Part shown: in pieces, positions 5,319 through 64,000 of the stretch | How positions within the stretch are numbered: the first letter of the stretch is position 1 | Layout: every line of letters starts with the position of its first letter | Origin: a phage | Sequence record: PZ445487.1 | Length of the DNA stretch: 64,000 nucleotides | Reading direction: 5' to 3' (one strand) | Notes under the pieces: model-generated | The model's input: the letters and a program-made list of their open reading frames with translations, nothing else | The model's database searches: none | What the model was told of the DNA's origin: nothing | Made by a program: the position numbers and the translations under genes

Positions 5319-5524
5319 TCGGGTTAATCCGTTATCTGTTCATATTCGTAATAACAACATTCATTTTATTTTTCTTTTTCAAATACTTGAAAGAGACTAA
5401 AATCTACCGGAGTAAACGTTGGCGCAAACGGGTGAGGGTAACTTTCCTACTGCTGATTTCTTCGGTTACAATAACTGCACTCACATTGGGTGCTTATATT
5501 TACATTTTTGAAGGAGTACATTGA
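5306..5524 (+). CDS. small membrane protein
   Basis: ORF track; two hydrophobic segments; overlaps downstream SPFH gene start. Confidence 0.45.
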   Translation: MGNMIGLIRYLFIFVITTFILFFFFKYLKETKIYRSKRWRKRVRVTFLLLISSVTITALTLGAYIYIFEGVH

Positions 5525-6315
5525 TGTTCAAGAAACTGGTATTTGGCGCAATTATGGTCCTAGCGGCAAGCCTTCTTTCAGGCTGCGGCGGTGTTATCGA
5601 TGAAGGAAACGTCGGTGTTCGAACCCAATGGGGTGAAGTGGACATGAACCCTGTAACCGCAGGTATCTACACCAGTTTCGTTTCAAGTGTAGATGTCTAT
5701 ACGACTAAAGAAGCCGTCGTGAGTCTGACGAAAATGACGCCAAAGGCCAAAGACAACCTGACCTTGGAAGATCTGGATGTGGACGTTTATTACACACCGA
5801 ACGTCGCGAAGGTTCCTTGGTTCCATACCAAATTTGCAGGTCAGAGCGCTGAACTCGGTGACGGCACGATAGCGGTGGGATTCAACCTGGTTAAAACCGC
5901 CGCAGCATCCTCAACGATGGACGCCGTTTCTTCTTTGGATTCTATGACAATTCACACCCAACGGGCTGAGTTAGAAAAGATGATCAAGGAACGCACCCAG
6001 CAGCAATTAGAAACAGCTGCACCTGGCATGTTCACAATCACACGCGTGTTGGTCAAAAAGGCGCTGACAGATCCTTCGATTGAGCAATCTATCCGTGATA
6101 ATGTCATGGCCGACAAACGTTTGGATACAGCAAGAAAGAACGTTGAAATTCGCGACCAAGAAGCCAAGGCGAATCAGAAACTGACGACATCTCTGACACC
6201 TGAATATTTACAACACGAATATAACATGGTGTTGCAATCTTGCGCCAACAGCGGGAAATGTACTCTGATTGTTGATGGTTCAGGCTCAAGTAAAATGCTA
6301 AACGTCGGCAAATAA
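5524..6315 (+). CDS. SPFH/band-7 domain lipoprotein (putative)
   Basis: Signal peptide with lipobox LLSGC; GNVGVRTQWGEV...P..AGIYTSF resembles HflK/C-stomatin SPFH N-terminal motif; GAAGGAG RBS. Confidence 0.6.
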   Translation: MFKKLVFGAIMVLAASLLSGCGGVIDEGNVGVRTQWGEVDMNPVTAGIYTSFVSSVDVYTTKEAVVSLTKMTPKAKDNLTLEDLDVDVYYTPNVAKVPWFHTKFAGQSAELGDGTIAVGFNLVKTAAASSTMDAVSSLDSMTIHTQRAELEKMIKERTQQQLETAAPGMFTITRVLVKKALTDPSIEQSIRDNVMADKRLDTARKNVEIRDQEAKANQKLTTSLTPEYLQHEYNMVLQSCANSGKCTLIVDGSGSSKMLNVGK

Positions 6316-6398
6316 ACGCTTTATTCAATAATATTTGTTAGGTAAGCTGTAGTCCTCTTGTAGTGAAACATTGTAAACAACTAACTGGAGTAATCCGA

Positions 6399-6677
6399 AT
6401 GAACCGTACTGATTTTATTGCTCACATCGCCCAGACTCAGGGTATGACCAAAGGCGAAGCTGAGAAAATCGTTGCATCTTTTATCAATGGCGTGAAAACT
6501 GCAGTCGCGGCTGGCCAATCTGTCCAATTCGTAGGCTTCGGCGCGTTCGAAGTTAAACATCAGGAAGCGCGCACTGGCCGCAACCCGCTGAACGGACAAC
6601 AGATCCAGATCGAAGCGAAAAATGTAGTTAAATTCAAAGTCGGTGAAGGTCTGAAAGCTGCTGCCAACGGCCAGTAA
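6399..6677 (+). CDS. HU/IHF-family histone-like DNA-binding protein
   Basis: Internal ATG of ORF 6363..6677; motifs GFGAFEV and RTGRNP..G typical of HU beta-arm. Confidence 0.75.
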   Translation: MNRTDFIAHIAQTQGMTKGEAEKIVASFINGVKTAVAAGQSVQFVGFGAFEVKHQEARTGRNPLNGQQIQIEAKNVVKFKVGEGLKAAANGQ

Positions 6678-6736
6678 TCACACCAGGCGTCGGCCCAGCG
6701 CATGTCTGCAGTGCAGCGGCGCAAGGCTAAAAGGAG

Positions 6737-6764
6737 AAGCCGAGGTTAATGCCTCGGCTTTTTC
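6737..6764 (+). terminator. rho-independent terminator after HU-like gene
   Basis: Hairpin AGCCGAGG-TTAAT-GCCTCGGCT followed by TTTTTCG. Confidence 0.65.
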
Positions 6765-6812
6765 GTTGTTGGGATTCGGGTAAACTATAACAGAATCCAA
6801 AGGAGGAACAAC

Positions 6813-8534
6813 GTGACAGCATTTAATCAACACCGAAAGGCGATTGACGCCATAGGCCGTAAGGTTCCTGTGGAAGAAATACAACGCCTTACCAAAGATG
6901 AATTCCCATATGACAAAGCGAACCCAGGCCAGATGGAATGCATCGTCGAAGCCATAGATGCGCTTATCAACAAAAAGGTTAAACATGTCATCATTGAAGC
7001 TCCGACAGGTGTCGGTAAATCTTTGATTGGCACTACCATTCATAAAGTGATTCGCCATCTAGTTTTACAGGCTGATCCTTATGGGCAATTTCGCACTTCT
7101 ATCAGCACCCCGACCAAAGGTCTGCAAGATCAGTATGCTGCTGAAAAGGCGGTGGCGATAGACATCCTAAAAGGCAAGAAGAACTATCGTTGCCACGTAC
7201 ATCCAGATGTGTATTACAATGCTGTCCAATGCCGTATAGCATGCCGTGACGGGCATTGTAGCAAACGCCGCTGTCCTTATGTACAGGCGCGTAATTTGTG
7301 GACGGATATTTCATCATTGCGTTGTACTAATGCTGCCATGATGATCGAAATGTGTACAACCATCTGCATGAAGCCCGAAAACCGTTCCGATATGCTGATC
7401 CTTGACGAGTGCCATAAAATGCCCTCTACGCTCCTAGAGCACACGATCATGGAATACAATACAAAGGCCGTGGAGGGGCTGCGTTCTATCCCTGAGGGCA
7501 AGGAGATCGTCTCTACCATTGGTGATATCGTAGAACGCACCAAGGACTATGTCCTGGGCAAGTTATATTCTTTGTCTGGTGAACTGCATTCAATGTTTGA
7601 AGCCCTCCATCTCAAAGTAGAAAATTTGTTGGAAGTTCTTGAAGAATTGGTCGAAGATGATCGCTTGAGTGAAAGCCAAGTGATGAAACTCGCCGACATT
7701 ATAGATGTCTTGCATAACTTGAGTGATTATTGCGGTATTATGTCACAAACCCAAGCAAGTACATTTATTGTGCAAGATAAGGGGGAAGATTTTATCCGGT
7801 TTAAACCTGTTATGCCTTCTGATGTAAGCGAATTCGGGTTATTCCGAAAAGCCGATTATCACGTTCATATGTCAGCAACGATCTGTGGTATAGATTCATA
7901 TGCTCGTTCATTGGGTATTCGACAGGGGGATTATCATTCCATTCAGATCGGCAACCCTATCCCGATTGAAAACAGAAAAGTCAACTATATGCCCATAGTG
8001 AAGATGACTAACAATATGGGTGACTATGAAATGAAAAGGTTGACGGAATATATTGATGAAATAATCGCGTTCCACCCAGGTCAGTCCGGCATTATCCATA
8101 CAGTGAGTTATGATCGCGCCTTGGCAATACAAAAATTCAGCAAATATCAGAATTTTATCCATGTTCCGCGTACCCGAAAGGCGTTGATGGATATTATGGA
8201 AAATGCTTTTAGAACAAAGTCCCCATGCGTCATTGCCAGTCCGGCTATGGAAGAAGGTTATGATTTCAAAGGGGATTACAGCCGTTTCCAAATACTGATC
8301 AAAGTCCCTTATGATTATCTGGGCGATCCACTGATAGCACATATCAATTCAGTGGATCCGTCGGCATACTTCCGCAATGCAGTACTGCGCATTGTTCAAA
8401 TGTGTGGACGTTCGGTCAGGGGTGTTGATGACTGGGCTGCGACATACATCATTGATTCATCCTTTGAATCTCTTATGATGCGCAACCCAGAATTCTTCCC
8501 AACCTGGTTCACCGATGCAGTGTTTGAGGTTTAA
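6813..8534 (+). CDS. DinG/XPD(Rad3)-type Fe-S helicase
   Basis: GTG start with AGGAGG RBS; Walker A APTGVGKS, DECH box (ILDECHK), Cys cluster CRIACRDGHCSKRRCP between motifs. Confidence 0.7.
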   Translation: MTAFNQHRKAIDAIGRKVPVEEIQRLTKDEFPYDKANPGQMECIVEAIDALINKKVKHVIIEAPTGVGKSLIGTTIHKVIRHLVLQADPYGQFRTSISTPTKGLQDQYAAEKAVAIDILKGKKNYRCHVHPDVYYNAVQCRIACRDGHCSKRRCPYVQARNLWTDISSLRCTNAAMMIEMCTTICMKPENRSDMLILDECHKMPSTLLEHTIMEYNTKAVEGLRSIPEGKEIVSTIGDIVERTKDYVLGKLYSLSGELHSMFEALHLKVENLLEVLEELVEDDRLSESQVMKLADIIDVLHNLSDYCGIMSQTQASTFIVQDKGEDFIRFKPVMPSDVSEFGLFRKADYHVHMSATICGIDSYARSLGIRQGDYHSIQIGNPIPIENRKVNYMPIVKMTNNMGDYEMKRLTEYIDEIIAFHPGQSGIIHTVSYDRALAIQKFSKYQNFIHVPRTRKALMDIMENAFRTKSPCVIASPAMEEGYDFKGDYSRFQILIKVPYDYLGDPLIAHINSVDPSAYFRNAVLRIVQMCGRSVRGVDDWAATYIIDSSFESLMMRNPEFFPTWFTDAVFEV

Positions 8535-9298
8535 TAACCCGCAATAAACGATAAATGGCACTTGATATTTGGTTCAAGTGTCGTTATCGTGATAATCATA
8601 TTGTCCACATCTTGGCTGAAAGATATATTTGCGATCGGTTTGGTTTGAACATGATTATACAGGCTATAAATCAGATCTTCACCACGATAACCGATTTTGC
8701 CATCAGTGTCCTGCCAATGACCGAGGGTAGACTCTCGAGCGTGTACTCGGAATTCGACCATATGAAACAATGCTTTTGGGATGGTCTTCAGTATGCTGGT
8801 CCCAACAACCGGAATATCAATAGAAGAGTCGTTGGAGTTTCCTTCATAAACAGATTCCCAACCAAATATTGGATCACCTCCTGCCACAGGAGTTCTTTTC
8901 CAGTATTGGAATTCTGGGTTGCCCGAAGCGTTCTTTTGTAGGAGGATTACTTCACCGCCTTCAAAATTGGAAGTGTCTATATCGTCCCTTGCTAATAAAT
9001 CTGCCGGAGAACCAATAAATTTCCAAGTTTCGCGATCTAAAATAGACTTATAATAATCGGTGAATACGTTGCTGTCGTTAGCTGCATTGATTGCGTCTTT
9101 AAGACCTTCACCTGTGACCATCTCATTAAGTTTTAGCCACATGTTTTTGACAGCTGACGCAGCTGCGACTTGACCTTCAGTCCCACCCGCCGTGTAGTCA
9201 TAAATGATGTCCAGCTTTTGTATGGAATCATTTATAGACAAGAGCAAACGCTCAATTTCTGGGGCGGTCAGACTGAAACGATATGCGCGTTCTGACAT
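8531..9298 (-). CDS. hypothetical protein (opposite-strand ORF inside early region)
   Basis: ORF track; GAGGA RBS; 3' end overlaps the helicase stop by 4 nt. Confidence 0.5.
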   Translation of the reverse strand: MSERAYRFSLTAPEIERLLLSINDSIQKLDIIYDYTAGGTEGQVAAASAVKNMWLKLNEMVTGEGLKDAINAANDSNVFTDYYKSILDRETWKFIGSPADLLARDDIDTSNFEGGEVILLQKNASGNPEFQYWKRTPVAGGDPIFGWESVYEGNSNDSSIDIPVVGTSILKTIPKALFHMVEFRVHARESTLGHWQDTDGKIGYRGEDLIYSLYNHVQTKPIANISFSQDVDNMIITITTLEPNIKCHLSFIAGY

Positions 9299-9340
9299 GA
9301 TTCGTTCCTCATCGATAAAACCAGTTTGGGATACTTATAC

Positions 9341-9868
9341 ATGATTGAAATATACACTGACGGGGCATCGTCCCCTCAGAAGACACGAGCCGCTGGTTGG
9401 GCATTTGCCATCAGTCCAATCACTGGAGAGCAATGGAAAGTGTTTTATGGGTATTTACCCCCGCCGTCAACGAACAATATAGCTGAGTTACTCGGGGTTA
9501 TAAACGCAATGAAGATCCTATGGAAATTCTCTAATTGCGGTGAACGCTGCATTCCCCCAGCCCGCATTATATCCGACAGCCAATATGTTATCAATAGCGT
9601 TTTGGAGTGGCGTCGTAAATGGGAATATGAAGGAATGCCGCCTAAGAACACAGAACTTCTGCTCGAGTTGTTCGATTATTATGACAAAGTTTGTTCAATT
9701 TGTGAACTTGAATTAAAATGGGTGAAAGGTCATGCAGGAACGATGGGCAACGAAATTGCGGATCAGTGGAGCGTTAGAGCCAAAGAAGATAGTTCAATGG
9801 TTCTTGAAAATAACCGTTTCTCGGTCAAGAAAGTCGTTGGTTCTTTCAATGAATTCATTGGTATTTGA
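9341..9868 (+). CDS. ribonuclease HI (RNase H type 1)
   Basis: Motifs IYTDGAS, NNIAEL, SDSQYV, KGHAG..NE.AD matching the RNase HI catalytic D-E-D-H-D set. Confidence 0.75.
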   Translation: MIEIYTDGASSPQKTRAAGWAFAISPITGEQWKVFYGYLPPPSTNNIAELLGVINAMKILWKFSNCGERCIPPARIISDSQYVINSVLEWRRKWEYEGMPPKNTELLLELFDYYDKVCSICELELKWVKGHAGTMGNEIADQWSVRAKEDSSMVLENNRFSVKKVVGSFNEFIGI

Positions 9869-9879
9869 GGATTATCACG

Positions 9880-10671
9880 ATGGGTATGAATTTTGTAGAC
9901 AGGGGTGATAACGTCACCAAATATTTCACAGACGAAGATAATGACCGTGTTGTTGGAATATTGAGAGATTGGATTCCGGCTCGCAAAAAGGCTTTGGCCG
10001 AAGGAACACCCCTACCAAGAATCCCCAATTATGTGGCCATGAATGTTCAGATGATTATTAAGAACATGAGTATGCGCTACAACTATCGTGATTATCCATA
10101 CCGCGAAGACATGGTCAGTGAGGCCGTTGTCAACATCCTTCGTTACCTCCATACATTTGACGTCAGTCATATCGGCAAGAAAGGAAAAATCAATTTCTTC
10201 TCTTGGGTAACGATGTGCGCCGATCGTTCATTCGCCAAGAAACTCACCAGTGAAGAAGAACACAATTATATCAAGTTGCGTTCATTTGAAGAAGCAGGTG
10301 GTTTCGCTGCATTATCAGATGACCCAGACTTCCAGCAACAGACATTCGTAGACAGCACTGGTATAACAATGGACTTCCGTGAGCGTATCGGAAATTTTGA
10401 AACTAAGAAAGAAGCACAGCGCGAAAAGGAACGCCAAAAGCAAATCGCCATCAAAGAAGAGGAAAAGAATAAGAAAATTCCTCGCGGTATACTTCAATGT
10501 CTCACAAAGAGTGAAAATACCATTACCGCCGACGCCGAAGATAATTCAGACTATGACTTCGGCTCTACTCAATTCAATCTGGAAGACGAAATATGTTCTA
10601 TGGAACCAGATTGGGAAGAAGCAAAGAAACGAGCATTAGAACGGGAGCAACAAAATAATGGCGATTGCTAA
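9880..10671 (+). CDS. 55: late-promoter sigma factor gp55
   Basis: Alignable by eye to T4 gp55 (RYNYRDY, LHTFD, INFFSWVTMCADRSFAKK); GAGGA RBS before internal ATG. Confidence 0.8.
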   Translation: MGMNFVDRGDNVTKYFTDEDNDRVVGILRDWIPARKKALAEGTPLPRIPNYVAMNVQMIIKNMSMRYNYRDYPYREDMVSEAVVNILRYLHTFDVSHIGKKGKINFFSWVTMCADRSFAKKLTSEEEHNYIKLRSFEEAGGFAALSDDPDFQQQTFVDSTGITMDFRERIGNFETKKEAQREKERQKQIAIKEEEKNKKIPRGILQCLTKSENTITADAEDNSDYDFGSTQFNLEDEICSMEPDWEEAKKRALEREQQNNGDC

Positions 10672-11775: not shown

Positions 11776-14109
11776 ATGAACAATGTAGACCTATTATCAA
11801 AATTTGGTTCGCTGTTGAAAGAAGCGGACACTCCTGTTTCTGTTGAAGTACCATTTGAAATTCGTGGGGAAATTACCCACAAACTGACTTTCCATCGCGG
11901 TCGCGCTAAAAACTTCCGTTCTATCGGTAATGAATTCATGGAAATTGATTACCAACGCAATTCGGCAACCTTGGTTACATCCGATGACAATGGCGCTGGT
12001 AAATCCACCATGCTTGTCTGGCTGCTGTTCTTCGTTCTGTATAATGACACATATAGCAAGAAAGAAAAGAAAGCCGGATTAGTCAATTCCCAAAACAAAA
12101 AGGAATGCGTGGGTGAAGTTGAGTTCTCCACTCGAGGAAGTGAATGGAAAGTCCGTCGTGGTATCAAACCTGATTTCGTAGAAGTCTATCAGATGGTAGA
12201 CGGTGAGTGGAAGCAGGTCGTGAATGATGCGGCCAAAGCCGACATGAACAAATATATTGTGAACCTGATTGGCGTAGACCAGAAGATGTTTGAGAACTCC
12301 CTGGTTCTAGGCAAAGAGAAGTTCATCCCATTCACGGAAATGTACACTGCCGACCGTCGCGCTATGGTAGAGACAATCTGGGATTTGGGGTTCTTCAGTC
12401 TGATGAATGAAGATGTAAAAGCATCTATCAAGACAGTAACGAATGAACTCACGACGGTCACCAATGATTACGCCTTTCATGATGTAAATTTAAAAGGCCA
12501 GCAAGCGCAGTTGGAACAGATCAATAATTCCAATGCGATGATCCAGCAACAATCTGCGGATATCCTTGTCCAAGAGAAGGAACGTCTGAATAGCCTGAAT
12601 TCAGATATCAACGCAGTGCAGGAACAACTGACAGAGTCCCGTGCTCAAGACTCTAAATTGGAATCAGAATTATCAGAAGTCCGTAATCGCCTGAACGCTG
12701 AAATGAAGGTGGATATCGATTCCATCAATGACGAGTATTTTGCCAAAATTCAAGCGGTTCAGGATGAGGCTGATACCAAGGCTGAAGACTATGAGCGTAT
12801 CGAGGTGTCTGATGGCGAACGTTCATTACAAGAAATTCGGGAGAGAATGGCGGTAGTCGCGGAACGTAAAAATGATCTGGTTAGCCAACGGAATGCTAAC
12901 CTGGATGAACTGAACAAAGCATTAGCGCGGCGTCAGCAGGGTGAGAACTTCCGTATCAAATTCGTAACAGAAATGGAAGGACATGAATCTGCCATCAAAC
13001 GTTTCCACGATATGGGCACTTGCCCTACGTGTACGCAATTAGTGTCGGACGATACCAAATCACGCATTGAAAGTCAATATTATCCACAAATCAGTGAACT
13101 GACTGACAAGATTCTTCAGGTTGATACAGCCCTAGAAGAAGTGAATTCCCTGATTGAGAATTACAATGTCAGAGATTCAGAATTATCTTCTCAGATTTCG
13201 GTTATTGACAAAGAACTGGATGCTTTGCGCAATGAAATTCGAGAAGCGGAATCGGCGATCGCTACATTAAAACGCGACATCCAAGGTTTCTACGAAGTTG
13301 CGGCGGTTGAGAAAACATCTTTACAGCGGGAACAACAGTCCAAAATTAACGACGTCCTCAAGGCCGTAGACACCCGTTACGAAGATATCACGACGTCAAT
13401 CCGTCAAGCCCGTGAGCAGCTCTCTAAGAGTATCAACGACACGGCTGATAAACTCACCAGCCTGAAATCACTCCGTGCCCCTCTGGAGGCATCCATTGCT
13501 GATTTAGAGCGTAAATTGGCGGTTAAGCCGACACCAACTGACGCCCTGGAAGAAGAGATCGCTCGCATCACGGCATTAATGGAAGATCTGAATGCGCGGC
13601 GCGTAGAGTTGGATGAGAAATTGCAAGACCTGAACCATCTTCTGTTCTTCCTAAAAGATGATCAGACCAAGGCTCGAATTATCAGTCTGTATTTGCCTTT
13701 CCTCAATAGTAAAATAAACGAGTATCTTGAAGCACTCAATATGTTCTTGGATATTGCTGTTGATGATACATTTGAAATCACCATGAGCGCTGCTGGTCGT
13801 AAAGGGCAAAGCATATTCTCCCTGTCTACAGGACAACGCAGCCGACTCAATCTGGCTGTGACATTAGCCCTACGGGACGTCGCTAACCTGAAGGCGTCTG
13901 TACAATGTAACCTCTTCGTGTTGGATGAGATACTCGAAAACATGAGTGAGCGAGGGGTTCAAGAATCCATCGAGATGCTGAAACATAAATTTGGTGGGAA
14001 CAATCTGTTTGTCATCAGTCAGCGTGAGCAGGAGTTCCAAGAATATTTCCAACATAACATTCGTTATGGTCTGCGTAATGGCATGACCGAAGTGATTAAG
14101 AAGGATTGA
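11776..14109 (+). CDS. 46: recombination endonuclease subunit gp46 (Rad50/SbcC-like ATPase)
   Basis: Walker A NGAGKST, long coiled-coil middle, C-terminal LSTGQRS signature-like and DE box. Confidence 0.85.
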   Translation: MNNVDLLSKFGSLLKEADTPVSVEVPFEIRGEITHKLTFHRGRAKNFRSIGNEFMEIDYQRNSATLVTSDDNGAGKSTMLVWLLFFVLYNDTYSKKEKKAGLVNSQNKKECVGEVEFSTRGSEWKVRRGIKPDFVEVYQMVDGEWKQVVNDAAKADMNKYIVNLIGVDQKMFENSLVLGKEKFIPFTEMYTADRRAMVETIWDLGFFSLMNEDVKASIKTVTNELTTVTNDYAFHDVNLKGQQAQLEQINNSNAMIQQQSADILVQEKERLNSLNSDINAVQEQLTESRAQDSKLESELSEVRNRLNAEMKVDIDSINDEYFAKIQAVQDEADTKAEDYERIEVSDGERSLQEIRERMAVVAERKNDLVSQRNANLDELNKALARRQQGENFRIKFVTEMEGHESAIKRFHDMGTCPTCTQLVSDDTKSRIESQYYPQISELTDKILQVDTALEEVNSLIENYNVRDSELSSQISVIDKELDALRNEIREAESAIATLKRDIQGFYEVAAVEKTSLQREQQSKINDVLKAVDTRYEDITTSIRQAREQLSKSINDTADKLTSLKSLRAPLEASIADLERKLAVKPTPTDALEEEIARITALMEDLNARRVELDEKLQDLNHLLFFLKDDQTKARIISLYLPFLNSKINEYLEALNMFLDIAVDDTFEITMSAAGRKGQSIFSLSTGQRSRLNLAVTLALRDVANLKASVQCNLFVLDEILENMSERGVQESIEMLKHKFGGNNLFVISQREQEFQEYFQHNIRYGLRNGMTEVIKKD

Positions 14110-14111
14110 TC

Positions 14112-14420
14112 ATGGGTAGCCTGATTCGTGTATCAAAGAAATCCAAGGGCGCTGAAAAGCGCCTGTACAAAGCCGTTCGCCTGATGATCCTCTACAAGTA
14201 CAAAGCGGAGAATCAATGCTGGCGCAAGAAGACGCGTGTCCGCTACCAAGTCGCCCAGTACCAGATGAAGCTGCGCGTTATCCGTTTGGCGATGAAGATC
14301 GCAGGGAATTACAAGTATTGGACATGTGAGGCTGTGGGCAGTCGCAAGGCAATTGACCTTGTCGAAGACCGGAATCTGTCCTTCCTGATCAATCTATCTA
14401 ATTATGAGGACATGACATGA
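14112..14420 (+). CDS. hypothetical basic protein
   Basis: Internal ATG overlapping gp46 stop; Lys/Arg-rich. Confidence 0.4.
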   Translation: MGSLIRVSKKSKGAEKRLYKAVRLMILYKYKAENQCWRKKTRVRYQVAQYQMKLRVIRLAMKIAGNYKYWTCEAVGSRKAIDLVEDRNLSFLINLSNYEDMT

Positions 14421-14460
14421 TGGTTAGTGCTGGTGTAAACCACGCCCCTGCCACGGGGAT

Positions 14461-14489
14461 GTTTACGTCAAAGTGATCGGTCGTATTAA
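14461..14489 (+). promoter_or_regulatory. early promoter (GTTTAC-N17-TATTAA)
   Basis: Hexamers read directly from sequence. Confidence 0.4.
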
Positions 14490-14539
14490 ACTATTCCGTA
14501 AGTTGGGTAAATCTTTTACTGAATATTTGAGACAAACAT

Positions 14540-14824
14540 ATGTCAGAAGAGAAAGATGAAATTCAGATTGCTTGTGATATCGCTGTCGAGTTATGGAATC
14601 AGCGAAACAAACATTATCAGGTGACGTTGACCCCAAAGCGTTATCTAGAGCAAGGTGGCTTAATAGTCGTTGATGCCGTGTTAGGTTTCAACAAATATAC
14701 TGACATGCAAATCTTGGACGGGGATTTCACTATTGCTTCCAATACAGCTTGGGATGATCCTATGGAATTTGTCTACGGTTGGTTGGAATGCATCGAGGAA
14801 TCATACCATCTGATCTACGAATAA
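14540..14824 (+). CDS. hypothetical protein
   Basis: ORF track; early promoter 14461-14489 upstream; terminator downstream. Confidence 0.5.
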   Translation: MSEEKDEIQIACDIAVELWNQRNKHYQVTLTPKRYLEQGGLIVVDAVLGFNKYTDMQILDGDFTIASNTAWDDPMEFVYGWLECIEESYHLIYE

Positions 14825-14827
14825 GGT

Positions 14828-14864
14828 GAAGGGCACTAAATATCAAGTGCCCTTTATCTTTTAA
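14828..14864 (+). terminator. rho-independent terminator
   Basis: Hairpin GAAGGGCACT..AGTGCCCTT followed by TATCTTTT. Confidence 0.55.
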
Positions 14865-14920
14865 CCCTGTCAGGAGGCTCAATCGAGCTGCAAGTCGACA
14901 AACACATAAGGAACGCCATC

Positions 14921-15538
14921 ATGACGATGACAACGTTGAAGGCCATGGCCTTGTCCGTGACCTTTACCATTGCCAGCGGGAGTGTGCACGCTTCCCAAAG
15001 TACCACCCAATGTGATTACGAATTTTCTGATCAACAACTTTCAACCATGGCCACAGCCTATCACATAGGCAAACAACAAGACCTTGGTTTCACCCTCGCC
15101 GCGATATCATGGAGGGAAAGCCGCGCCGGAGAAGATGTTGTATCCATGCGGAATAACCTGAAATCGGCTAACATGGGGGCATTTCAAAATCGCGTCCAAA
15201 CCGTCGGGAAACGGGAGGGATGCAAAACACAGAAGTGTTACGCCAATGTCGCGATCAAATTACTGGTCAATCAAGAATATGCTGCCAATGCTGCCCTTGA
15301 TGAAATGAATTTCTGGCTAGAATATCACAACCAAAACATTCGCAAATCCCTTTCCTCTTACAATGCTGGGTTCAATCGTAACCAGAAATCCAATTCTTAT
15401 GCAGCCGACGTCGTGAAGAAGGCTAAATATCTTCAACGATGTGTGTCTTTCAAAAGCATGGCAATAAACCCAAAGGTCGACCCAGGAGTGATCGCCATGA
15501 ATAAGCGCACGATTGAGAAACTCAAGAGGACCAGATAA
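14921..15538 (+). CDS. secreted lytic-transglycosylase-like protein (putative SLT domain)
   Basis: Signal peptide; AISWRESRAG...ANMGAFQ resembles SLT ES...GLMQ motifs. Confidence 0.45.
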   Translation: MTMTTLKAMALSVTFTIASGSVHASQSTTQCDYEFSDQQLSTMATAYHIGKQQDLGFTLAAISWRESRAGEDVVSMRNNLKSANMGAFQNRVQTVGKREGCKTQKCYANVAIKLLVNQEYAANAALDEMNFWLEYHNQNIRKSLSSYNAGFNRNQKSNSYAADVVKKAKYLQRCVSFKSMAINPKVDPGVIAMNKRTIEKLKRTR

Positions 15539-16176
15539 TGAATATCACTCCATCTCAGACCGGATATGAACACATAATGGTGTTTCTGGCTATTCAGGGC
15601 GCGAAGGAAGGGATCATTACTTCAGAATATTCCGGTACAATGCGCCTTGCGGATTATGTCGCGCCGGAAGCATTCATCAAGAAATGCATCGACGCTTGGT
15701 GCCTTTATGCACTCGGCACGTATCCATCCCCTCCTGCTGGTGAGTTATTGTTTACCATACCGACTCCGGCAACTGGTGACACAGACGCGATATTCGCCGA
15801 TATGCTGTCAAAGGGTTATCTGACATATGACAGTGCTCACAGCGTGTATGATTTTTCTGCGCTGAATCGTATCTTCGGATTCACCATAACTTCTGAAGCG
15901 AATATTCCTGATTATGGAATACTAGCATGGGGCGTCGACGGTTTGGGGGCAACATATGCATCTTCGGATGTCGGTCCTGTGTTGATAGACCCAGGGGTGA
16001 CGATGGAGCAATACATGTCACAATTCCCTCAGCATAATGTTACCGGAAGCGACATCATTATTGTCTATCCTGGTTCTAATGCGCTACCCCGTTTGGTCAC
16101 GGGTTGGCAGTCACAGTTGAAGGACATTGTCTCTGGAATCAGGTTCCATATTCCTGTTGTCAATCCAACACCTTAA
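15538..16176 (+). CDS. hypothetical protein
   Basis: ORF track; ATGA-type coupling to upstream gene. Confidence 0.5.
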   Translation: MNITPSQTGYEHIMVFLAIQGAKEGIITSEYSGTMRLADYVAPEAFIKKCIDAWCLYALGTYPSPPAGELLFTIPTPATGDTDAIFADMLSKGYLTYDSAHSVYDFSALNRIFGFTITSEANIPDYGILAWGVDGLGATYASSDVGPVLIDPGVTMEQYMSQFPQHNVTGSDIIIVYPGSNALPRLVTGWQSQLKDIVSGIRFHIPVVNPTP

Positions 16177-16204
16177 AATATTCAATAAAAGGGGCAAAAG
16201 CCCC

Positions 16205-16233
16205 TTTACTTCTTCAATAACCCACGTATAATT
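16205..16233 (+). promoter_or_regulatory. early promoter (TTTACT-N16/17-TATAAT)
   Basis: Follows hairpin 16190-16205; TATAAT at 16227-16232. Confidence 0.5.
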
Positions 16234-16258
16234 CTAAACATAAGCAGTACGACACCAA

Positions 16259-16283
16259 CTTGAAAAGCAGGAACTACATTATG
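16259..16283 (+). repeat. conserved early 5' leader motif (copy)
   Basis: CTTGAAAAGCAGGAACTACATTATG. Confidence 0.55.
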
Positions 16284-16556
16284 AAAATCATCCTCGACGC
16301 ATATATCCGTTACGGCAGCAAATGGTTGATGGCCAAAGTTTACGACGGTGAAGAATTAGTCCACGCCCAAACCGCCCCTTCTGAACAATTGCGTGAAATT
16401 ATGAAACGCGATTTTCCTACTGCTGAAATGATTGAACCTGCCAACCAAACCGAAGTTGACAAAGAATGGGAACGCGAATGGAGTCCGGCGGCGTTGGCAC
16501 AATTTGATAAGAATTACAACAATCGCCAAAACGCGTCTCGCCCGTTTCGTCGTTAA
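16281..16556 (+). CDS. hypothetical protein
   Basis: ATG at end of conserved leader 16259-16283; early promoter 16205-16233. Confidence 0.5.
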   Translation: MKIILDAYIRYGSKWLMAKVYDGEELVHAQTAPSEQLREIMKRDFPTAEMIEPANQTEVDKEWEREWSPAALAQFDKNYNNRQNASRPFRR

Positions 16557-16621
16557 GAAGCACCCCTTTCTTTTCGCTAATTAAGGGAAACCGCACCGAT
16601 TTTATAATCAGGAGAATTACA

Positions 16622-19009
16622 ATGGCCATCCCATCTTTCTTGAACTTTCTTGAAGAGTCTAAACAATTAGACGAAGCGTTTAACTCATCCCCGTATGAAT
16701 TGACATTCGGCAAGAAGAACGCTGGTGACATTTTCTTCACATTTGTTGATGAAGACGAAAAAGAATTCCGTATTCAATTCTATACCCCACAAGGTCTAGG
16801 CAAGAATGTTCGCCAAGTCTTTATCGGTCAGAAGCGTGGTTCCACATATCCCGATGCCATCGGTCGTTTCAAGAATCCGATGCGTGTTATCGCATCCATG
16901 ATTGAAGCAACAAAGCAATTCATGGCGACGCCTTTGGGGAAAACCATTGACGGCTTTGCAATTAACTTCTCCAAGAAAGCATTGGAGCGTGGTGTTACCC
17001 TCCTGCCGAAGATTATCCGTCAGTCCGGCCTGAAGCAAAAGCTCAATGTCATGGACCTGACGTATACCCCTATCCCTGATCGTGCATTCGTATGGGTTGT
17101 GCGTAAAGGCAAGGATCCTGCTCAGGTATTCGATGGTCCGAAAATGAAAGGCGTGACTTGGGACGACCCAGACAAAGTCGGTGACGTTCCTGACCAGGCT
17201 GCTCGTGACGCCGCACTACAAGGTGACATGGATGATTTGAGCCAATCCATAAATGCCGATTCTCGCTGGATTCTGACCAAAGCTGATCATACTCAGCCTA
17301 TGCTGGTCTGGTCTGGTAAAGAACGTGGGCGGACTATTACCGCCAATATCGCACCTCACGCGAATGAACCTGGTGTGTATGCTGGTAGTATCATGAACGA
17401 GAAACGGATCCGCGCTCAATCCCCAGACGCTATTGTACGCCAACTGGGATTACCGCAGATCCCTGTGAATATTCTGAATGATTTCACCAAGCAGTCGTCC
17501 ATCTTCTGGAAAGAGATGACGGGGGATTCTGGAAAAATAGACATGCAGACTTTGCCAAAAACAGGATCTGTGGATGACTTACGAAATCAGGGTTATATTG
17601 CTCGCCTTCTGGGGATTGTAGACACATATGCTCCACAACAGGTCGGTATGTATGCAGGTGAGAAACTAACACGAATCGGCGCGGGCAAATATCGTACTTC
17701 GGGTGGTCTGGACATTCAGGTTTATTTCTGGGGAATTGTCAACGGAAAACTTTCTGTAGAAGTGGTTTCTGATTTATCTGGCAATGAACAGCTGATGCTG
17801 GAAGGCGACGTGAAAAACGCTGCTTTTGAAATCGTCAGTGCGATATCCCGTGCTGCTGATTCTCAGTTCAACGGTGAAGTGGAATGTCGTGTTGTTCCGA
17901 TCAACGGTGCCCCATACCCGATTCAAAAGGTTTCCCGTTCTCAGGGTTATTCTTATGTCGATTGTATTTCGTTTACTTTGAAGATCGCCGATGCATTGTT
18001 AAATCGATTTACTCTGGGTAAGGCAGTCAAACTCGATCTGATAAAAGAGTTCCCTCGAACGACGTTTATTGTTCGTTATGACTGGCGCAGCAAAGATACT
18101 CTGATGGTCCAGTCTTCTGATGGGAAGACTATCTTCGGCGAAATCAACACAAATTCCAGTGATAACGCTGTCATCACTGCGAACCTGAAAGCCCCAAGCA
18201 ATGCGAAGATATTTGGTGAAACCGTTCATGGGTTCTCTGTGGCTTGGGACTTCCAGTTCCCTGCGGGTAGCCAGCTGCAAGCCGCACGGTTCGTTACGAA
18301 CGTGACTTACGACTTCGATCGTAATAAGGCCAACATCACGACCATGCTGACAGAAAATGGCCGAAATGTAGTCAATAGCAGCGGATATGACATTCAGTTA
18401 TCTGTCAAGTCTGTGCAAGATGCATTGAATGAGACTTCACAACGCCTGAAAGACGCTGCGGCTCAATTGAGCCATCTTGGTTCATCAAACTATAACCCGA
18501 ACAAGCTGTTCCTGAATGATATCACCGTCAGTAAGTTTGGTGCAATTATGTTCCAAGACAAAGATCTGGCACAGTCCAAAAACCGCACGGCAGTCATTGA
18601 TGCTTTGGCTCGGGCGAAAGATCAGGTCGCTGGTGGTAAGAATGCAGGCGATCTGGCCACCTATGCCGGATCCATTCGTGATAGCGCTCCTAATGGACGA
18701 GATCTGGATTGGCAGGTATACACAGCCAGTAATGGTACAGTTCTGAATGTTGCCTGGGATATCACTTTCCGTCGCAATACGACCGAAGGAGCATATCGTG
18801 AATTCAAGGATCAGATCAACCGTGCCAACCAATACCTGCAAACGGTATACAACGACGCGAAATCTAAAGGCTATAATCCTACCGAGCCAAATCTCATGAC
18901 TCTTGAACGCGCTCGCCAATCCGACGAATGGGCTATGAGTAATGGTGATAGTGCATACAGTGAATATGAACAATCGCTGGGTGGTAATCTTCAGATTAGT
19001 CTGAAATAA
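16622..19009 (+). CDS. large hypothetical protein (shares domain with 19061-19606)
   Basis: ORF track, 795 aa; RBS AGGAGAA; internal motif SPDAIVRQLGLPQIPVNILNDF. Confidence 0.6.
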   Translation: MAIPSFLNFLEESKQLDEAFNSSPYELTFGKKNAGDIFFTFVDEDEKEFRIQFYTPQGLGKNVRQVFIGQKRGSTYPDAIGRFKNPMRVIASMIEATKQFMATPLGKTIDGFAINFSKKALERGVTLLPKIIRQSGLKQKLNVMDLTYTPIPDRAFVWVVRKGKDPAQVFDGPKMKGVTWDDPDKVGDVPDQAARDAALQGDMDDLSQSINADSRWILTKADHTQPMLVWSGKERGRTITANIAPHANEPGVYAGSIMNEKRIRAQSPDAIVRQLGLPQIPVNILNDFTKQSSIFWKEMTGDSGKIDMQTLPKTGSVDDLRNQGYIARLLGIVDTYAPQQVGMYAGEKLTRIGAGKYRTSGGLDIQVYFWGIVNGKLSVEVVSDLSGNEQLMLEGDVKNAAFEIVSAISRAADSQFNGEVECRVVPINGAPYPIQKVSRSQGYSYVDCISFTLKIADALLNRFTLGKAVKLDLIKEFPRTTFIVRYDWRSKDTLMVQSSDGKTIFGEINTNSSDNAVITANLKAPSNAKIFGETVHGFSVAWDFQFPAGSQLQAARFVTNVTYDFDRNKANITTMLTENGRNVVNSSGYDIQLSVKSVQDALNETSQRLKDAAAQLSHLGSSNYNPNKLFLNDITVSKFGAIMFQDKDLAQSKNRTAVIDALARAKDQVAGGKNAGDLATYAGSIRDSAPNGRDLDWQVYTASNGTVLNVAWDITFRRNTTEGAYREFKDQINRANQYLQTVYNDAKSKGYNPTEPNLMTLERARQSDEWAMSNGDSAYSEYEQSLGGNLQISLK

Positions 19010-60778: not shown

Positions 60779-61107
60779 AAGATCCCCAAGTCGGTAAGGT
60801 AACGATAAAACAAGATTATAGACAGAAATCCAATTAACGCCCAAGACGACAGGATAGGCTTTCCATTGAGCGTGGTCTTCCCATTGGGTATGTTAGGACT
60901 TCCGGTAATAACGACGGAGTCTGTTTTGGCTCTCAGCGTCATGATAGAACCCATGAGAATGATTGGGCGCACATAATACCCTTCATGATTGCGCTTCACG
61001 ATACATGGTGAAGAAAATCGCAGGAACGGATCACCGCTTTTATAACCAAATAACTCGACCTTTTCAATTTCTTCGGGTACTTTCTGACCAGGAAAGAATA
61101 TTTTCAT
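60775..61107 (-). CDS. hypothetical protein
   Basis: ORF track. Confidence 0.35.
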
Positions 61108-61682
61108 AATACAATTCCTAAATTTGTGTATAACAACTCAGCCAGGGTTACAGGACGCTTGAATTGTTCCCAACTGCAGTTCAGGTATTCGCGCTCTTCG
61201 CGAATATTTTCGTGAAGATGACCATGGATATTATACGCCCAACGGTCTAATTGATAAGGAACATGTGTTGTCAACACACAGCCAACAGGCGTGTCACGTT
61301 CGTACATAGCGCCGAAGGAGCTAATCCAGCCGTCCAGATACAGAGACAACAACATCTTAAAGCTGTCATGGTTGCCTTGTGCCACCTTGATGATAAAGTT
61401 CGGACGCCAGTCATCGGGAACGGGGCGTCGCTTAAACTCATCAATGTTTCGCTTGGCACCCTCCCGCATCAGGCGAATGAACCCTTCAGCCCCGATGAAG
61501 CATATATCACCAGCCAGTTCAAGAACGTCCCGAGACTTCAACCCCTGAAAGATACTGTCAATGACCGCAGCGTCATGGGCTTCCTGTGTATCAAATCCAC
61601 GCGGTTTAAAGACCTTCTTATGCCCAAGATGAGTGTCACCAAGGTGCTTTACAATTCCCGCCATTATGGTTTCCTCAGCCAT
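61104..61682 (-). CDS. calcineurin-like metallophosphoesterase
   Basis: Motifs GDTHLG, GD..F, GNHD, HGHLH; start may be the internal ATG at 61664. Confidence 0.6.
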
Positions 61683-62005
61683 TCTAAAATCGGTACGTTC
61701 ACAAACCCTTTATGCCAACGATGCGGTTTGTGACCTCTATTATGTTCGAGCAAACACGTGTCTGGTGGGACACTGAAGTGGATGCCGTCGATGTCGTAGT
61801 AATGTCCATCAATCAGAGTATACACATGACCTTCAATCTGGCTATAATGGATCTCTGCTTGAGGATACACATGCTTCAGAACCAGAGCAACCTGATAGCA
61901 CTTTCCGTTCTTCCCAACATACTCAACATCCACCTGTTGTGGGAAGACGTCTTTGATAAGATTTATCAATCTCGTGATGTCATTTACAACAACCGAACAT
62001 TTCAT
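61664..62005 (-). CDS. hypothetical His-rich protein
   Basis: ORF track. Confidence 0.4.
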
Positions 62006-62007
62006 CT

Positions 62008-62670
62008 CTATGATAACTCATGGCGATGTCGAACACAGGCAGGGCAATCACAATTCTTTTTCAAAATTGGCAATTCACACCATGTCATTAAGTCATGTAT
62101 TGGGGACATGTGATGATAGAACCAAGATTTCTTGAGACTAATCAATGGATATAAAATTTCAATAGATCTTTCCCCGTCTCTGGTCATCATGTTGTATCCT
62201 TCAATAACTTTATTAAAGGCGGGTATCCAGTGTATTGCGTCATCGCCGTTAACATATGCCAAGATATACGTGGGTGGCAAGCCACTGCCTTTAAATTGCG
62301 TGTTTAATAACCATATCGGGGCTTGTGCTAAACAAGCGCGAAAACCACCGTTCGGGACGTTGATGCTACTGATAGGTTCTTGATGATGTGTCCAACGATA
62401 CATGAGAAGTGGGGCATTTTTATTAATCCAGTTGTATATTTTATTCCTCGCCCAATTTTCGCGTTTAGATTTAAATTTATTATTTTCGAGGTGGCAATAC
62501 ACAGTATGAACTGAATATCCTTTCGATAGCAACCAAATCAACATGTATGTGCTATCCACCCCACCAGACCAGAACAACGTCACTTCTTGATTATTCTGCG
62601 GCAATGGAGCATCCCCTTGAAGAACACGGTATACAAAATCACAATCAGATATTGAGACAACAATTTCCAT
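62008..62670 (-). CDS. QueC-like PP-loop ATPase (7-cyano-7-deazaguanine synthase family, putative)
   Basis: PP-loop SGGVDS near N-terminus and C-terminal zinc motif C..(9)..CDCPACVRH resembling QueC CxxCPAC..R. Confidence 0.55.
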   Translation of the reverse strand: MEIVVSISDCDFVYRVLQGDAPLPQNNQEVTLFWSGGVDSTYMLIWLLSKGYSVHTVYCHLENNKFKSKRENWARNKIYNWINKNAPLLMYRWTHHQEPISSINVPNGGFRACLAQAPIWLLNTQFKGSGLPPTYILAYVNGDDAIHWIPAFNKVIEGYNMMTRDGERSIEILYPLISLKKSWFYHHMSPIHDLMTWCELPILKKNCDCPACVRHRHELS

Positions 62671-62966
62671 TAAAATATTCCTCTTAAAGAATCATTTATC
62701 CTGCGCAATTCGTTTTCCACTTTTATCTTCATATTTTTATCGTCGTTCACGAAAATCATTTTATCTAAATCTTCGCCATTAATCTTTGTATAAAAATAAA
62801 TGTCATGCTCAAAGAAAATCGTTTTTCCAACAGAACGCATGGCAAAGAACGTTGCGATAGTTCTTGGTAAAGGTTTGAATTTAATGGCATTGAAACGCAA
62901 AGCCTGATAGAGAGGTTTTAATGTTCCTAAGCGAATACAATGCTGGATAATTTCTTGCTCTTTCAT
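62670..62966 (-). CDS. hypothetical protein
   Basis: ORF track. Confidence 0.4.
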   Translation of the reverse strand: MKEQEIIQHCIRLGTLKPLYQALRFNAIKFKPLPRTIATFFAMRSVGKTIFFEHDIYFYTKINGEDLDKMIFVNDDKNMKIKVENELRRINDSLRGIF

Positions 62967-63013
62967 TTGTTGTGTGCCATAAAGATATGATGGTACAATG
63001 ATAATACATTATA

Positions 63014-63040
63014 CAAATAGAAAAGCCCCTTTCGGGGCTT
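63014..63040 (-). terminator. rho-independent terminator (minus strand)
   Basis: Hairpin AAGCCCC-GAAA-GGGGCTT followed on minus strand by TTTTCTAT, directly after stop of 63039-63329 gene. Confidence 0.55.
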
Positions 63041-63329
63041 ATTTGTCTTCAGATTCGTACAAACGCCAATTGCCGATGCTAAACCATTCCCCTACATTAT
63101 TTGAATATCTGGTTGTTCGGACTCCTCCGACTTCATACGCCCATTTGAAGAATTTCCATTTGGACGATAAAGAAGGACATTCGCTTCCAGATTTCAAAGA
63201 ACACGCTGTGAGCCAACGTGTAATACTGAGAGCCTGAAAAATCGGATGGATAAATGAAGAATACAATATCCAAAGCGTTATGACAACAAAAACAATGGTC
63301 GTGATCACCCCGACAATTTGAAAGAACAT
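63039..63329 (-). CDS. small membrane protein
   Basis: ORF track; hydrophobic N-terminus; minus-strand terminator immediately downstream. Confidence 0.35.
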   Translation of the reverse strand: MFFQIVGVITTIVFVVITLWILYSSFIHPIFQALSITRWLTACSLKSGSECPSLSSKWKFFKWAYEVGGVRTTRYSNNVGEWFSIGNWRLYESEDK

Positions 63330-63406
63330 TTAAGAACCTCCAAAATATTGAACACAGACTATGAAGAAAACTATGATTGTAAACAACCATGAAAACAAGG
63401 AAAGAT

Positions 63407-64000
63407 TCATCCTTCTACCTTCAGCCCCATCAGGTCTTCCATGGTTTTCTGAATGCGTAGCCAGTCAAGCGCCGCATCATAACGAGGATCATGATAGACC
63501 ATGCCTTCCAGTTCCCACGCCTTGATACCAGCATATCGATCCTGCTGCCCAACACCCTTCAGCCAGCTTACGATGTCAAATGTGTGGTGATAGTCCCAAG
63601 GTTCGTTGGAATCTTGCTTACACGTCACCTCAATGATGTGCTGAGCCTTGCGTAGGTCAAACAGATTCCTATCACACCAGTCAACCGATCGCGGGTCGAT
63701 CCCAAGGCGATGGCATCCCCTGCGAATTTCATCGGCCAATTTGAAAATAGAAATATCCTTGTCGGTCGGATATAGACTGATAGTTCGGGCGGCGTCGCAC
63801 GGGTTGCGTTTACCTGTACCCAGCCACCATTCCACAGTGCCCTGGTCTTTCACACGGCCAAGTTCAATCTGTTCTTTGACATTCAGTTTGATAAATGTCG
63901 TGCGCTCTACAACAAGCTGCTGAAGAGTATAACGCTTGGTCAGGTCGGCGATAGTCTGTGCCCAAGACAACATGACAGCATCATCCCAACGACCGAGAGT
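63407..64000 (-). CDS. dexA: exonuclease A (DexA-like), 5' end probably beyond window
   Basis: TVEWWLGTGKRNP region resembles T4 DexA TIEWWKNQSPEARKN; ORF open to window edge. Confidence 0.45.
   Translation of the reverse strand, partial: TLGRWDDAVMLSWAQTIADLTKRYTLQQLVVERTTFIKLNVKEQIELGRVKDQGTVEWWLGTGKRNPCDAARTISLYPTDKDISIFKLADEIRRGCHRLGIDPRSVDWCDRNLFDLRKAQHIIEVTCKQDSNEPWDYHHTFDIVSWLKGVGQQDRYAGIKAWELEGMVYHDPRYDAALDWLRIQKTMEDLMGLKVEG

Follow-up and report, generated by a model that had tools for sequence, protein, structure and literature searches.

QueC, the enzyme that converts 7-carboxy-7-deazaguanine (CDG) to 7-cyano-7-deazaguanine (preQ0), carries the canonical signature SGGxDS, YxQxHxxE, VPxRN, YPDC and C(x)8CxxCxxC (Libby et al. 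2026; PMC13329287), and the substitutions Y35A, R99A, Y131A and Y189A each inactivate the Escherichia coli enzyme (PMC13329287). Comparison of Bacillus subtilis QueC and Cap9 structures is the basis for the roles of these residues: the Tyr of YPDC stacks on the 7-deazaguanine, the Asp reads its Watson-Crick edge, and the Arg of the RN motif also stacks, with the recognizing Tyr/Asp pair being Y129/D131 in B. subtilis QueC and Y115/D117 in Cap9 (PMC13279940; bioRxiv 10.1101/2025.04.06.647259). The QueC fold has recently been shown to serve beyond preQ0, in Cap9 and QatC, for protein modification in anti-phage immunity. Here we consider a phage-encoded relative, gp024, the product of positions 62008..62670 (minus strand) of a 64,000-nucleotide stretch of phage DNA (record PZ445487.1), which we call the window. 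We conclude that gp024 is probably a zinc-knuckle PP-loop ATPase from a phage-specific, divergent offshoot of the QueC superfamily, and not a preQ0 synthase.

Window positions 61000-64000 are 100% identical, in reverse orientation, to Escherichia phage CBA120 (NC_016570.1; Kuttervirus, Ackermannviridae), a CBA120 record position being 78302 minus the window position. The gene is found there at 15632..16294 as orf028/gp024 (YP_004957727.1), 220 amino acids (aa) long with an ATG start. Both the gene and its orphan status were already on record (RefSeq; Hutinet et al. 2019, PMC6884629): RefSeq had labelled gp024 "QueC-like queuosine biosynthesis" before the present analysis, and Hutinet et al. 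noted the orphan in Kuttervirus ECML-4 and considered it likely that the protein falls in another subfamily (PMC6884629). New here are the recognition of a large phage-restricted clade within the QueC superfamily, the explicit loss of the deazaguanine-recognition residues, the replication-module context, and the dispensability of the gene within Ackermannviridae.

The sequence-only reading had called the protein a QueC-like PP-loop ATPase and had named PAPS reductase among the other PP-loop families whose profiles might match it better. The profile searches support the QueC assignment. The best Pfam match is QueC (PF06508), at 23.5 bits against a gathering threshold of 22 over residues 33-64, with ThiI at 20.9 bits; the score for the NCBIfam QueC equivalog TIGR00364 is 17.8 bits against a cut-off of 150.3, and BLASTP against QueC of the E. 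coli host aligned 30 residues. Since single-sequence searches (Pfam, NCBIfam and phmmer against the Protein Data Bank, PDB) reached only the 30-residue PP-loop, placement of the protein required profiles. PHROG 1550 ("QueC-like") matches gp024 over its full length (E 2e-81). In an hhalign comparison, the profile of a 63-member family aligned with canonical QueC at 98% probability (E 2.1e-13, 181 columns). Against the PDB, the same family profile found QueC 3bl5 (1.3e-9), Cap9 9nto (2.4e-9) and QueC 2pg3 (1.6e-7), matching in two stretches, the PP-loop and a C-terminal "PL..K...C..CGxCxxC", while all other PP-loop families gave 1.8e-3 or worse. Neither PAPS reductase nor any other PP-loop family was the best match in the Pfam, PHROG or PDB profile searches. 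The best structural matches of gp024 are likewise Cap9 and QueC, and gp024 has both significant full-length profile similarity to, and the fold of, the QueC superfamily (PF06508 sensu lato). The assignment extends to the family as a whole: all 63 aligned members match PHROG 1550, and 60 of the 63 match Pfam QueC (best E 1e-11), some over the C-terminal half of the model. Among the ten longest members, no additional Pfam domain was found besides one weak helix-turn-helix.

The motifs that mark the ATP site and the predicted zinc site are strongly conserved. Residues 34-41 of gp024 read W-SGGVDS-T, and the protein ends in ...WCELPILKKNCDCPACVRHRHELS. The PP-loop SGGVDS, the ATP pyrophosphate-binding motif at residues 35-40 (62551..62568, minus strand), aligns to SGGQDS of E. 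coli QueC. The Cys cluster C198-E-x7-C207-D-C209-P-A-C212-V-R-H215 (62026..62079, minus strand) is a predicted zinc site whose four Cys align by hhalign with C188, C197, C200 and C203 of QueC, and also with the C-terminal stretch shared by Cap9 and QueC. In an alignment of 20 homologues with 54-97% identity to gp024, S35, G36, G37, D39, S40, C198, C207, C209, C212 and H215 are invariant. In a wider alignment of 63 sequences, reaching down to 25% identity, G37, D39, S40, E71, Y139, D143, K181 and all four Cys remain invariant, and D144, A145 and E199 are at least 90% conserved. This invariance across homologues indicates that selection maintains the PP-loop and Cys motifs and that they did not match by chance. 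The spacing in CBA120 is C198-x8-C207-x1-C209-x2-C212, one spacer being one residue shorter in Kuttervirus than in the CGxCxxC of the wider family. By alignment, the four-Cys knuckle probably binds zinc. Thus both motifs on which the sequence-only reading had relied, the SGGVDS PP-loop and the QueC-like Cys cluster, withstand family-wide comparison, the latter aligning column for column with the zinc site of QueC.

Family members also differ in their ends. Many are 250-340 aa long, with a C-terminal extension that is poorly conserved and often acidic (for example L029 10001-10903, L085 8950-9915 and L026 10007-11038). Kuttervirus proteins have no such extension and carry instead an N-terminal extension of ~28 residues with a short helix.

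The residues that contact the substrate in QueC follow a different pattern. Relative to QueC, the hhalign comparison shows retention of the PP-loop, E71 (= E42), D143 (= D127), P175/K181 (= P159/K165) and the four Cys. In the YxQxHxxE motif the Glu (E71) alone is kept; Y35 is replaced by N64, and Q37 and H39 are not conserved. For VPxRN, P97 corresponds to P118, and R99/N100 lie opposite a gap in hhalign, or opposite W120/L121 if the helix register is followed. For YPDC, Y131 becomes H147, P132/D133 fall into a gap and C134 becomes W148, while Y189, which follows the first zinc Cys of QueC, is replaced by E199 in the gp024 family. Among the 155 best family representatives, none has Y.DC and P.RN together, whereas the C-E pair is present in 152 and the Cys motif in 145. 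At the QueC substrate-motif sites the family has its own conserved residues: N63-N64, Q116-x-P118-x-W120, Y139-x3-D143-D144-A145 and C198-E199. The stretch Y139-V-N-G-D-D-A145 (62236..62256, minus strand), identified by conservation and hhalign, occupies the QueC segment leading into YPDC. The CDG-contact residues have therefore been swapped for another family-conserved set, which argues that the substrate, or at least its binding mode, differs. Speculatively, the aromatic side chains among these residues could still stack on a planar ligand. An ATP site and zinc knuckle that are kept around a rebuilt substrate pocket are the pattern described for QatC. Judged from these residues, gp024 does not appear to be a preQ0 synthase.

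The family extends well beyond CBA120. Searching with gp024, tblastn found matches in 199 phage records, nearly all of them from Ackermannviridae, at identities down to 23%. A profile search of 1.84 billion cluster representatives (clusters at 50% identity) found 1155 at E <= 1e-3 and 478 at E <= 1e-10, spanning residues ~28-220. Most Ackermannviridae and several jumbo phages carry the gene; cultured carriers include the jumbo phages RSL2, RSF1, FLC6, Noxifer and PS119XW, and Vibrio Campanilevirus. A contig scan by a generic PP-loop pattern confirmed none of 600 candidates as relatives and was uninformative on cellular genomes. Annotations of orthologues are inconsistent, ranging over hypothetical protein, alpha hydrolase, adenine alpha hydrolase, argininosuccinate synthase (STP07) and 7-cyano-7-deazaguanine synthase/queC (Vibrio GR28A). 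In the literature on PP-loop enzymes in crAss-like phages or hypermodification pathways we found no study of the gp024 family, and of the ten largest clusters analysed in detail in a 2026 survey of PF06508, none described is a phage family of this kind.

Genomic context was examined through an IMG/VR scan that yielded 79 loci, the open reading frames (ORFs) of 69 of which were clustered. In ~26 loci of an uncultured lineage, the genes follow one another as SNF2 helicase, 120-aa ORF, PP-loop gene, family B DNA polymerase, several uncharacterised ORFs and NUDIX, and the PP-loop gene encodes a protein of ~300 aa with an acidic C-terminal tail. The conserved neighbours c2, c5, c6, c7, c8 and c9 of this clade have no PHROG or Pfam annotation. 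A crAss-like affiliation of the polymerase was considered and rejected, its nearest cultured relatives being from Salinibacter and Nostoc phages at ~26% identity. Among 139 neighbours in 24 further loci, the recurrent Pfam domains are DnaB_C, RecA, 5'-3' exonuclease, SNF2 and ParB_N; topoisomerase II, Pol A, deoxycytidine monophosphate (dCMP) deaminase, RNase T and NAPRTase occur once each. The neighbourhoods in RSL2 and Vibrio GR28A consist mostly of hypothetical proteins. Two loci, L018 and L035, have the order QueC, gp32-like single-stranded DNA-binding protein, UvsX, FEN, DnaB, PP-loop gene and SbcCD. In these, a textbook QueC (YGQKH, VPNRN, YPDC, CGKCGSC) lies a few kb from a divergent family member (L035 3428-4231 and 9998-10708; L018 2423-3220 and 10004-10759), and no DpdA, FolE, QueD or QueE is found in the 20 kb of sequence covered. 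Since both loci encode the canonical and the divergent protein, the two are not interchangeable paralogues, which argues against redundancy. Across unrelated phages, the theme of the family is replication and nucleotide metabolism, not queuosine genes.

Signs of inteins were also seen in these loci: the UvsX/RecA-like (598 aa; 5357-7153) and DnaB-like (597 aa; 8201-9994) proteins of L035 are unusually long and apparently intein-bearing, and a Hom_end_hint Pfam match occurs among neighbours of family loci.

The sequence-only reading had left two possibilities: that the phage feeds a 7-deazaguanine DNA-modification route whose partners are encoded elsewhere, or that the enzyme acts on a different carboxylated substrate, possibly a base-modification intermediate. 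A true QueC, turning host-made CDG into preQ0 at the cost of 2 ATP, for queuosine in host or phage tRNA or for DNA modification via a host enzyme, would have its pathway available, as the E. coli host supplies FolE, QueD, QueE and Tgt (tRNA-guanine transglycosylase, TGT); queC is also present in the host. CBA120 moreover encodes a tRNA-Asn(gtt), with anticodon GUU, the Pfam QueC score lies just over its gathering threshold, and the PP-loop and four-Cys site are kept. We nevertheless regard this explanation as highly improbable. Besides the very low equivalog score and the two loci that pair a canonical QueC with a gp024-type paralogue, the four positions that are lethal to E. coli QueC as alanine mutants are substituted (PMC13329287), the CDG-recognizing Tyr/Asp pair is absent (hhalign; PMC13279940), and Hutinet et al. 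2019 had favoured another subfamily for the Kuttervirus protein. The orphan status noted for the window, with no QueD, QueE, FolE or DpdA partner, holds for the complete 157,304-bp CBA120 genome: neither contains an annotated DpdA/TGT, FolE, QueD or QueE, phmmer searches of the whole genome in six-frame translation with phage 9g DpdA, FolE, QueD and QueE reached E = 0.27 at best, and none of these genes lies within 10 kb of the PP-loop gene in the 69 viral loci. In addition, liquid chromatography-mass spectrometry (LC-MS) of CBA120 virion DNA by Lee et al. 2018 revealed the four canonical nucleosides and one 301-Da nucleoside, 5-(2-aminoethoxy)methyl-2'-deoxyuridine (5-NeOmdU), which replaces about 40% of T (PMC5889632). 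With a complete genome lacking the partners, 5-NeOmdU as the sole extra nucleoside and the deazaguanine-recognition residues missing (PMC13279940, PMC13329287), the deazaguanine route loses its footing. The proposal of a different carboxylated substrate fits the data better and remains plausible, while its extension to thymidine hypermodification, for instance by amidating the carboxylate of O-serinyl-thymidine, or to a minor second DNA modification, is very unlikely. It is true that 5-NeOmdU is made via a carboxylated intermediate (PMC8989533), that CmoY, an asparagine-synthetase homologue of the PP-loop superfamily, amidates a carboxylated base in phage DNA (PMC12783734), and that a dCMP deaminase is encoded ~2 kb downstream of gp024. 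However, 5-NeOmdU has been reconstituted in vitro from five other ViI proteins, gp67, gp160, gp226, gp243 and gp247 (PMC5889632), its individual steps have been carried out with purified kinase, gp247 and gp226 (PMC8989533), and the sole extra nucleoside of CBA120 has the mass of the decarboxylated product (PMC5889632); the PP-loop enzyme is not among the proteins of the reconstituted pathway. Furthermore, LIMEstone1 (Ackermannviridae), listed by Lee et al. among phages encoding the 5-hydroxymethyluridine DNA kinase 5-HMUDK (PMC5889632), has no gp024 homologue in its first 150 kb, where the best E is 0.13; the CBA120 control gives 6.6e-123. At the syntenic site (L088 13123-14184), ~1 kb with three small ORFs separates topoisomerase II from dCMP deaminase. 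This phage still carries a putative threonine ammonia-lyase, probably a pyridoxal phosphate enzyme of the ViI gp226 type; its genome was not searched for kinases or aGPT-Pplases. LIMEstone1 thus marks the gene as accessory in Ackermannviridae and uncoupled from thymidine hypermodification, and most family members are found in phages with no hypermodification genes found nearby. As gp024 is neither required for nor co-inherited with ViI-type 5-NeOmdU synthesis, we rejected this role.

Two further explanations place the enzyme on other substrates. A sulfur or amine transferase of the ThiI/TtuA/TilS/MnmA type would act by adenylating a carbonyl on a pyrimidine of tRNA or DNA, with the Cys as an Fe-S centre. 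ThiI-type matches do occur, but they are confined to the PP-loop region; in the profile search these families reach 3.7e-3 or worse, as against about 1e-9 for QueC and Cap9. Because the Cys spacing fits the zinc knuckle of QueC, an Fe-S thiolase ranks low; no THUMP, PUA or other RNA-binding domain is present, and 220 aa leaves no room for one. We give this explanation very little weight. A viral counterpart of Cap9 or QatC, joining a carboxylated nucleobase, a nucleobase-like acid or some other acid to the free amine at the N-terminus of a small partner or replisome protein, for example for regulation of a replisome component or for counter-defence, is unlikely but has a lead of its own. In 28 loci of the uncultured lineage, an upstream ORF of ~120 aa overlaps the start of the PP-loop gene (for example L029 9657-10022, L030 9642-10001 and L036 9637-10002). 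Its N-terminus reads M-[GA]-x-x-Y-x-W..NPF.D.L, beginning with M-G or M-A in 26 of the 28 sequences, and it has no Pfam or PHROG match. This translationally coupled Met-Gly/Ala start recalls the acceptor N-termini MGGS and MGTS of CdnD and QatB (PMC13279940), and the acidic C-terminal tails are typical of replisome interactors. Yet many proteins of all kinds have Gly or Ala at position 2, the start codons of these ORFs were set by a simple longest-ORF rule, and the deazaguanine-binding residues of Cap9 are not conserved in the gp024 family. The ~120-aa ORF has no homologue in CBA120 (best E 0.1); the ORFs flanking gp024 start with MK, so that the initiator Met would stay, and neither is kept beside the gene in Taipeivirus. 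With neither a homologue of the ORF nor suitable neighbours, the lead is not directly transferable to CBA120.

Our best reading is that gp024 would be a ligase or amidotransferase that works through an adenylate and on a substrate different from that of QueC. By analogy with every characterised relative, ATP would bind at SGGVDS and a substrate oxygen, that of a carboxylate or lactam carbonyl, would be adenylated with release of pyrophosphate; a nitrogen nucleophile such as ammonia or an amine would then displace AMP from the adenylated substrate. Because of the replication and nucleotide-metabolism context, we tentatively favour, as the substrate class, a nucleotide, a nucleobase or similar metabolite, or a nucleic acid linked to replication, at a probability well short of even.

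Several points weigh against the reading of gp024 as an enzyme with a substrate other than CDG. QatC also lacks the Tyr/Asp pair, yet some authors propose that it uses deazaguanine, so that loss of the motif is not a strict exclusion of CDG. The motif mapping depends on a profile alignment and a predicted model, and is least certain for the central region (residues 90-135), which is unaligned in plain HMMER and in which the predicted local distance difference test (pLDDT) score is 73-79 for residues 100-130. A modification carried by far fewer than 1% of bases would escape both ultraviolet high-performance liquid chromatography and LC-MS of virion DNA. The substrate class is drawn from gene neighbourhood alone, which in phages is weak evidence.

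In CBA120, the PP-loop gene is part of a tight co-directional run comprising the DexA exonuclease, two small ORFs, gp024, a small ORF, a metallophosphoesterase, more small ORFs and the dCMP deaminase. The gp024 gene (PHROG 1550), defined by its ORF and profile matches, is preceded by a Shine-Dalgarno-like stretch, AAGAGGAA, and its ATG shares one base with the stop codon (TAATG) of the upstream orf027 (62670..62966, minus strand; 98 aa, PHROG 9302). As orf027 is not kept beside the PP-loop gene in Taipeivirus loci, it is context and not a demonstrated partner. Downstream lies orf031 (61664..62005, minus strand; 113 aa, PHROG 4814), which locus L015 lacks between its PP-loop gene and phosphoesterase, followed by the metallophosphoesterase orf033 (61104..61682, minus strand; PHROG 547). 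The latter is a recurrent near neighbour in Kuttervirus and Taipeivirus, and a phosphoesterase (cluster c31) comes after the PP-loop gene in L005, L014 and L015. Between orf025 and orf027, directly upstream of the run of orf027, PP-loop gene and phosphoesterase, a consensus scan picked up a terminator-like hairpin (63023..63040, minus strand) with a perfect 7-bp GC-rich stem, AAGCCCC GAAA GGGGCTT, which is terminator-like on either strand and may mark a transcription-unit boundary. The whole block between topoisomerase II and dCMP deaminase spans window positions ~59538-66500 (record ~11800-18764), ~6.5 kb with about 17 ORFs that include Tk.4, DexA, gp024 and the phosphoesterase. Within this variable block, gp024 counts as accessory and belongs to the early or middle genes. 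Mass spectrometry of a Vi01-like phage preparation recovered one peptide of the QueC-like protein Sajous1 gp66 (PMC10892097), a weak sign that the protein is expressed.

The gp024 family represents a third, phage-borne branch of QueC-fold enzymes, and its substrate could reveal a new modification of nucleotides, DNA or protein. Should the Cap9/QatC-like ligase explanation be true, nucleobase-protein conjugation would reach beyond bacterial immunity into phage replication or counter-defence. The labels "7-cyano-7-deazaguanine synthase" and "argininosuccinate synthase" are over-annotations because they are based on the PP-loop; "QueC-like queuosine biosynthesis" is one as well, and such labels are no evidence of deazaguanine DNA in ViI-like therapeutic phages.

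Finally, gp024 can be set against the characterised systems. It resembles canonical QueC in size (220 aa versus 219-231), in SGGxDS and in full-length homology, and it shares the Glu of YxQxHxxE, the Asp before YPDC, the P...K stretch and a four-Cys knuckle that aligns column by column. It differs from canonical QueC in having none of Y35, Q37, H39, R99, N100, Y131-P-D-C134 and Y189, in its CxC rather than CxxC spacing in CBA120, in scoring far under the equivalog cut-off and in not being linked to queD, queE or folE. Cap9, the QueC-like N-terminal deazaguanylase of type IV cyclic-oligonucleotide-based anti-phage signalling systems (PDB 9nto), keeps RN and YxDC (PMC13329287), whereas the gp024 family does not; gp024 is also phage-encoded and lies outside any bacterial defence operon, and by RefSeq annotation CBA120 has no CD-NTase, Cap10/TGT-like, Cap11, QatA or QatD gene. 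QatC, of the QatABCD system, is closer in pattern: it is a QueC-family protein that keeps ATP binding and the Cys motif while its CDG-recognition Tyr/Asp are replaced (PMC13279940, PMC13329287), and the gene for a small N-terminal-Gly partner precedes it, an arrangement that the Met-Gly/Ala ORF of the uncultured-phage clade may recall. In contrast to gp024, QatC is about 400 aa long and carries extensions at both its N- and C-terminus as well as a C(x)19CGxC motif; 8 of 63 gp024-family members touch the PADLOC QatC model, with no QatA, QatB or QatD context. CmoY (PMC12783734) is of the AsnB type, has no zinc knuckle and, unlike gp024, adjoins the enzymes that make its substrate. It is nonetheless encoded by a phage and, as an adenylate-forming member of the wider PP-loop superfamily whose target is a carboxylated DNA base, 5-carboxymethylcytosine, provides a precedent for the chemistry that the sequence-only reading had proposed.

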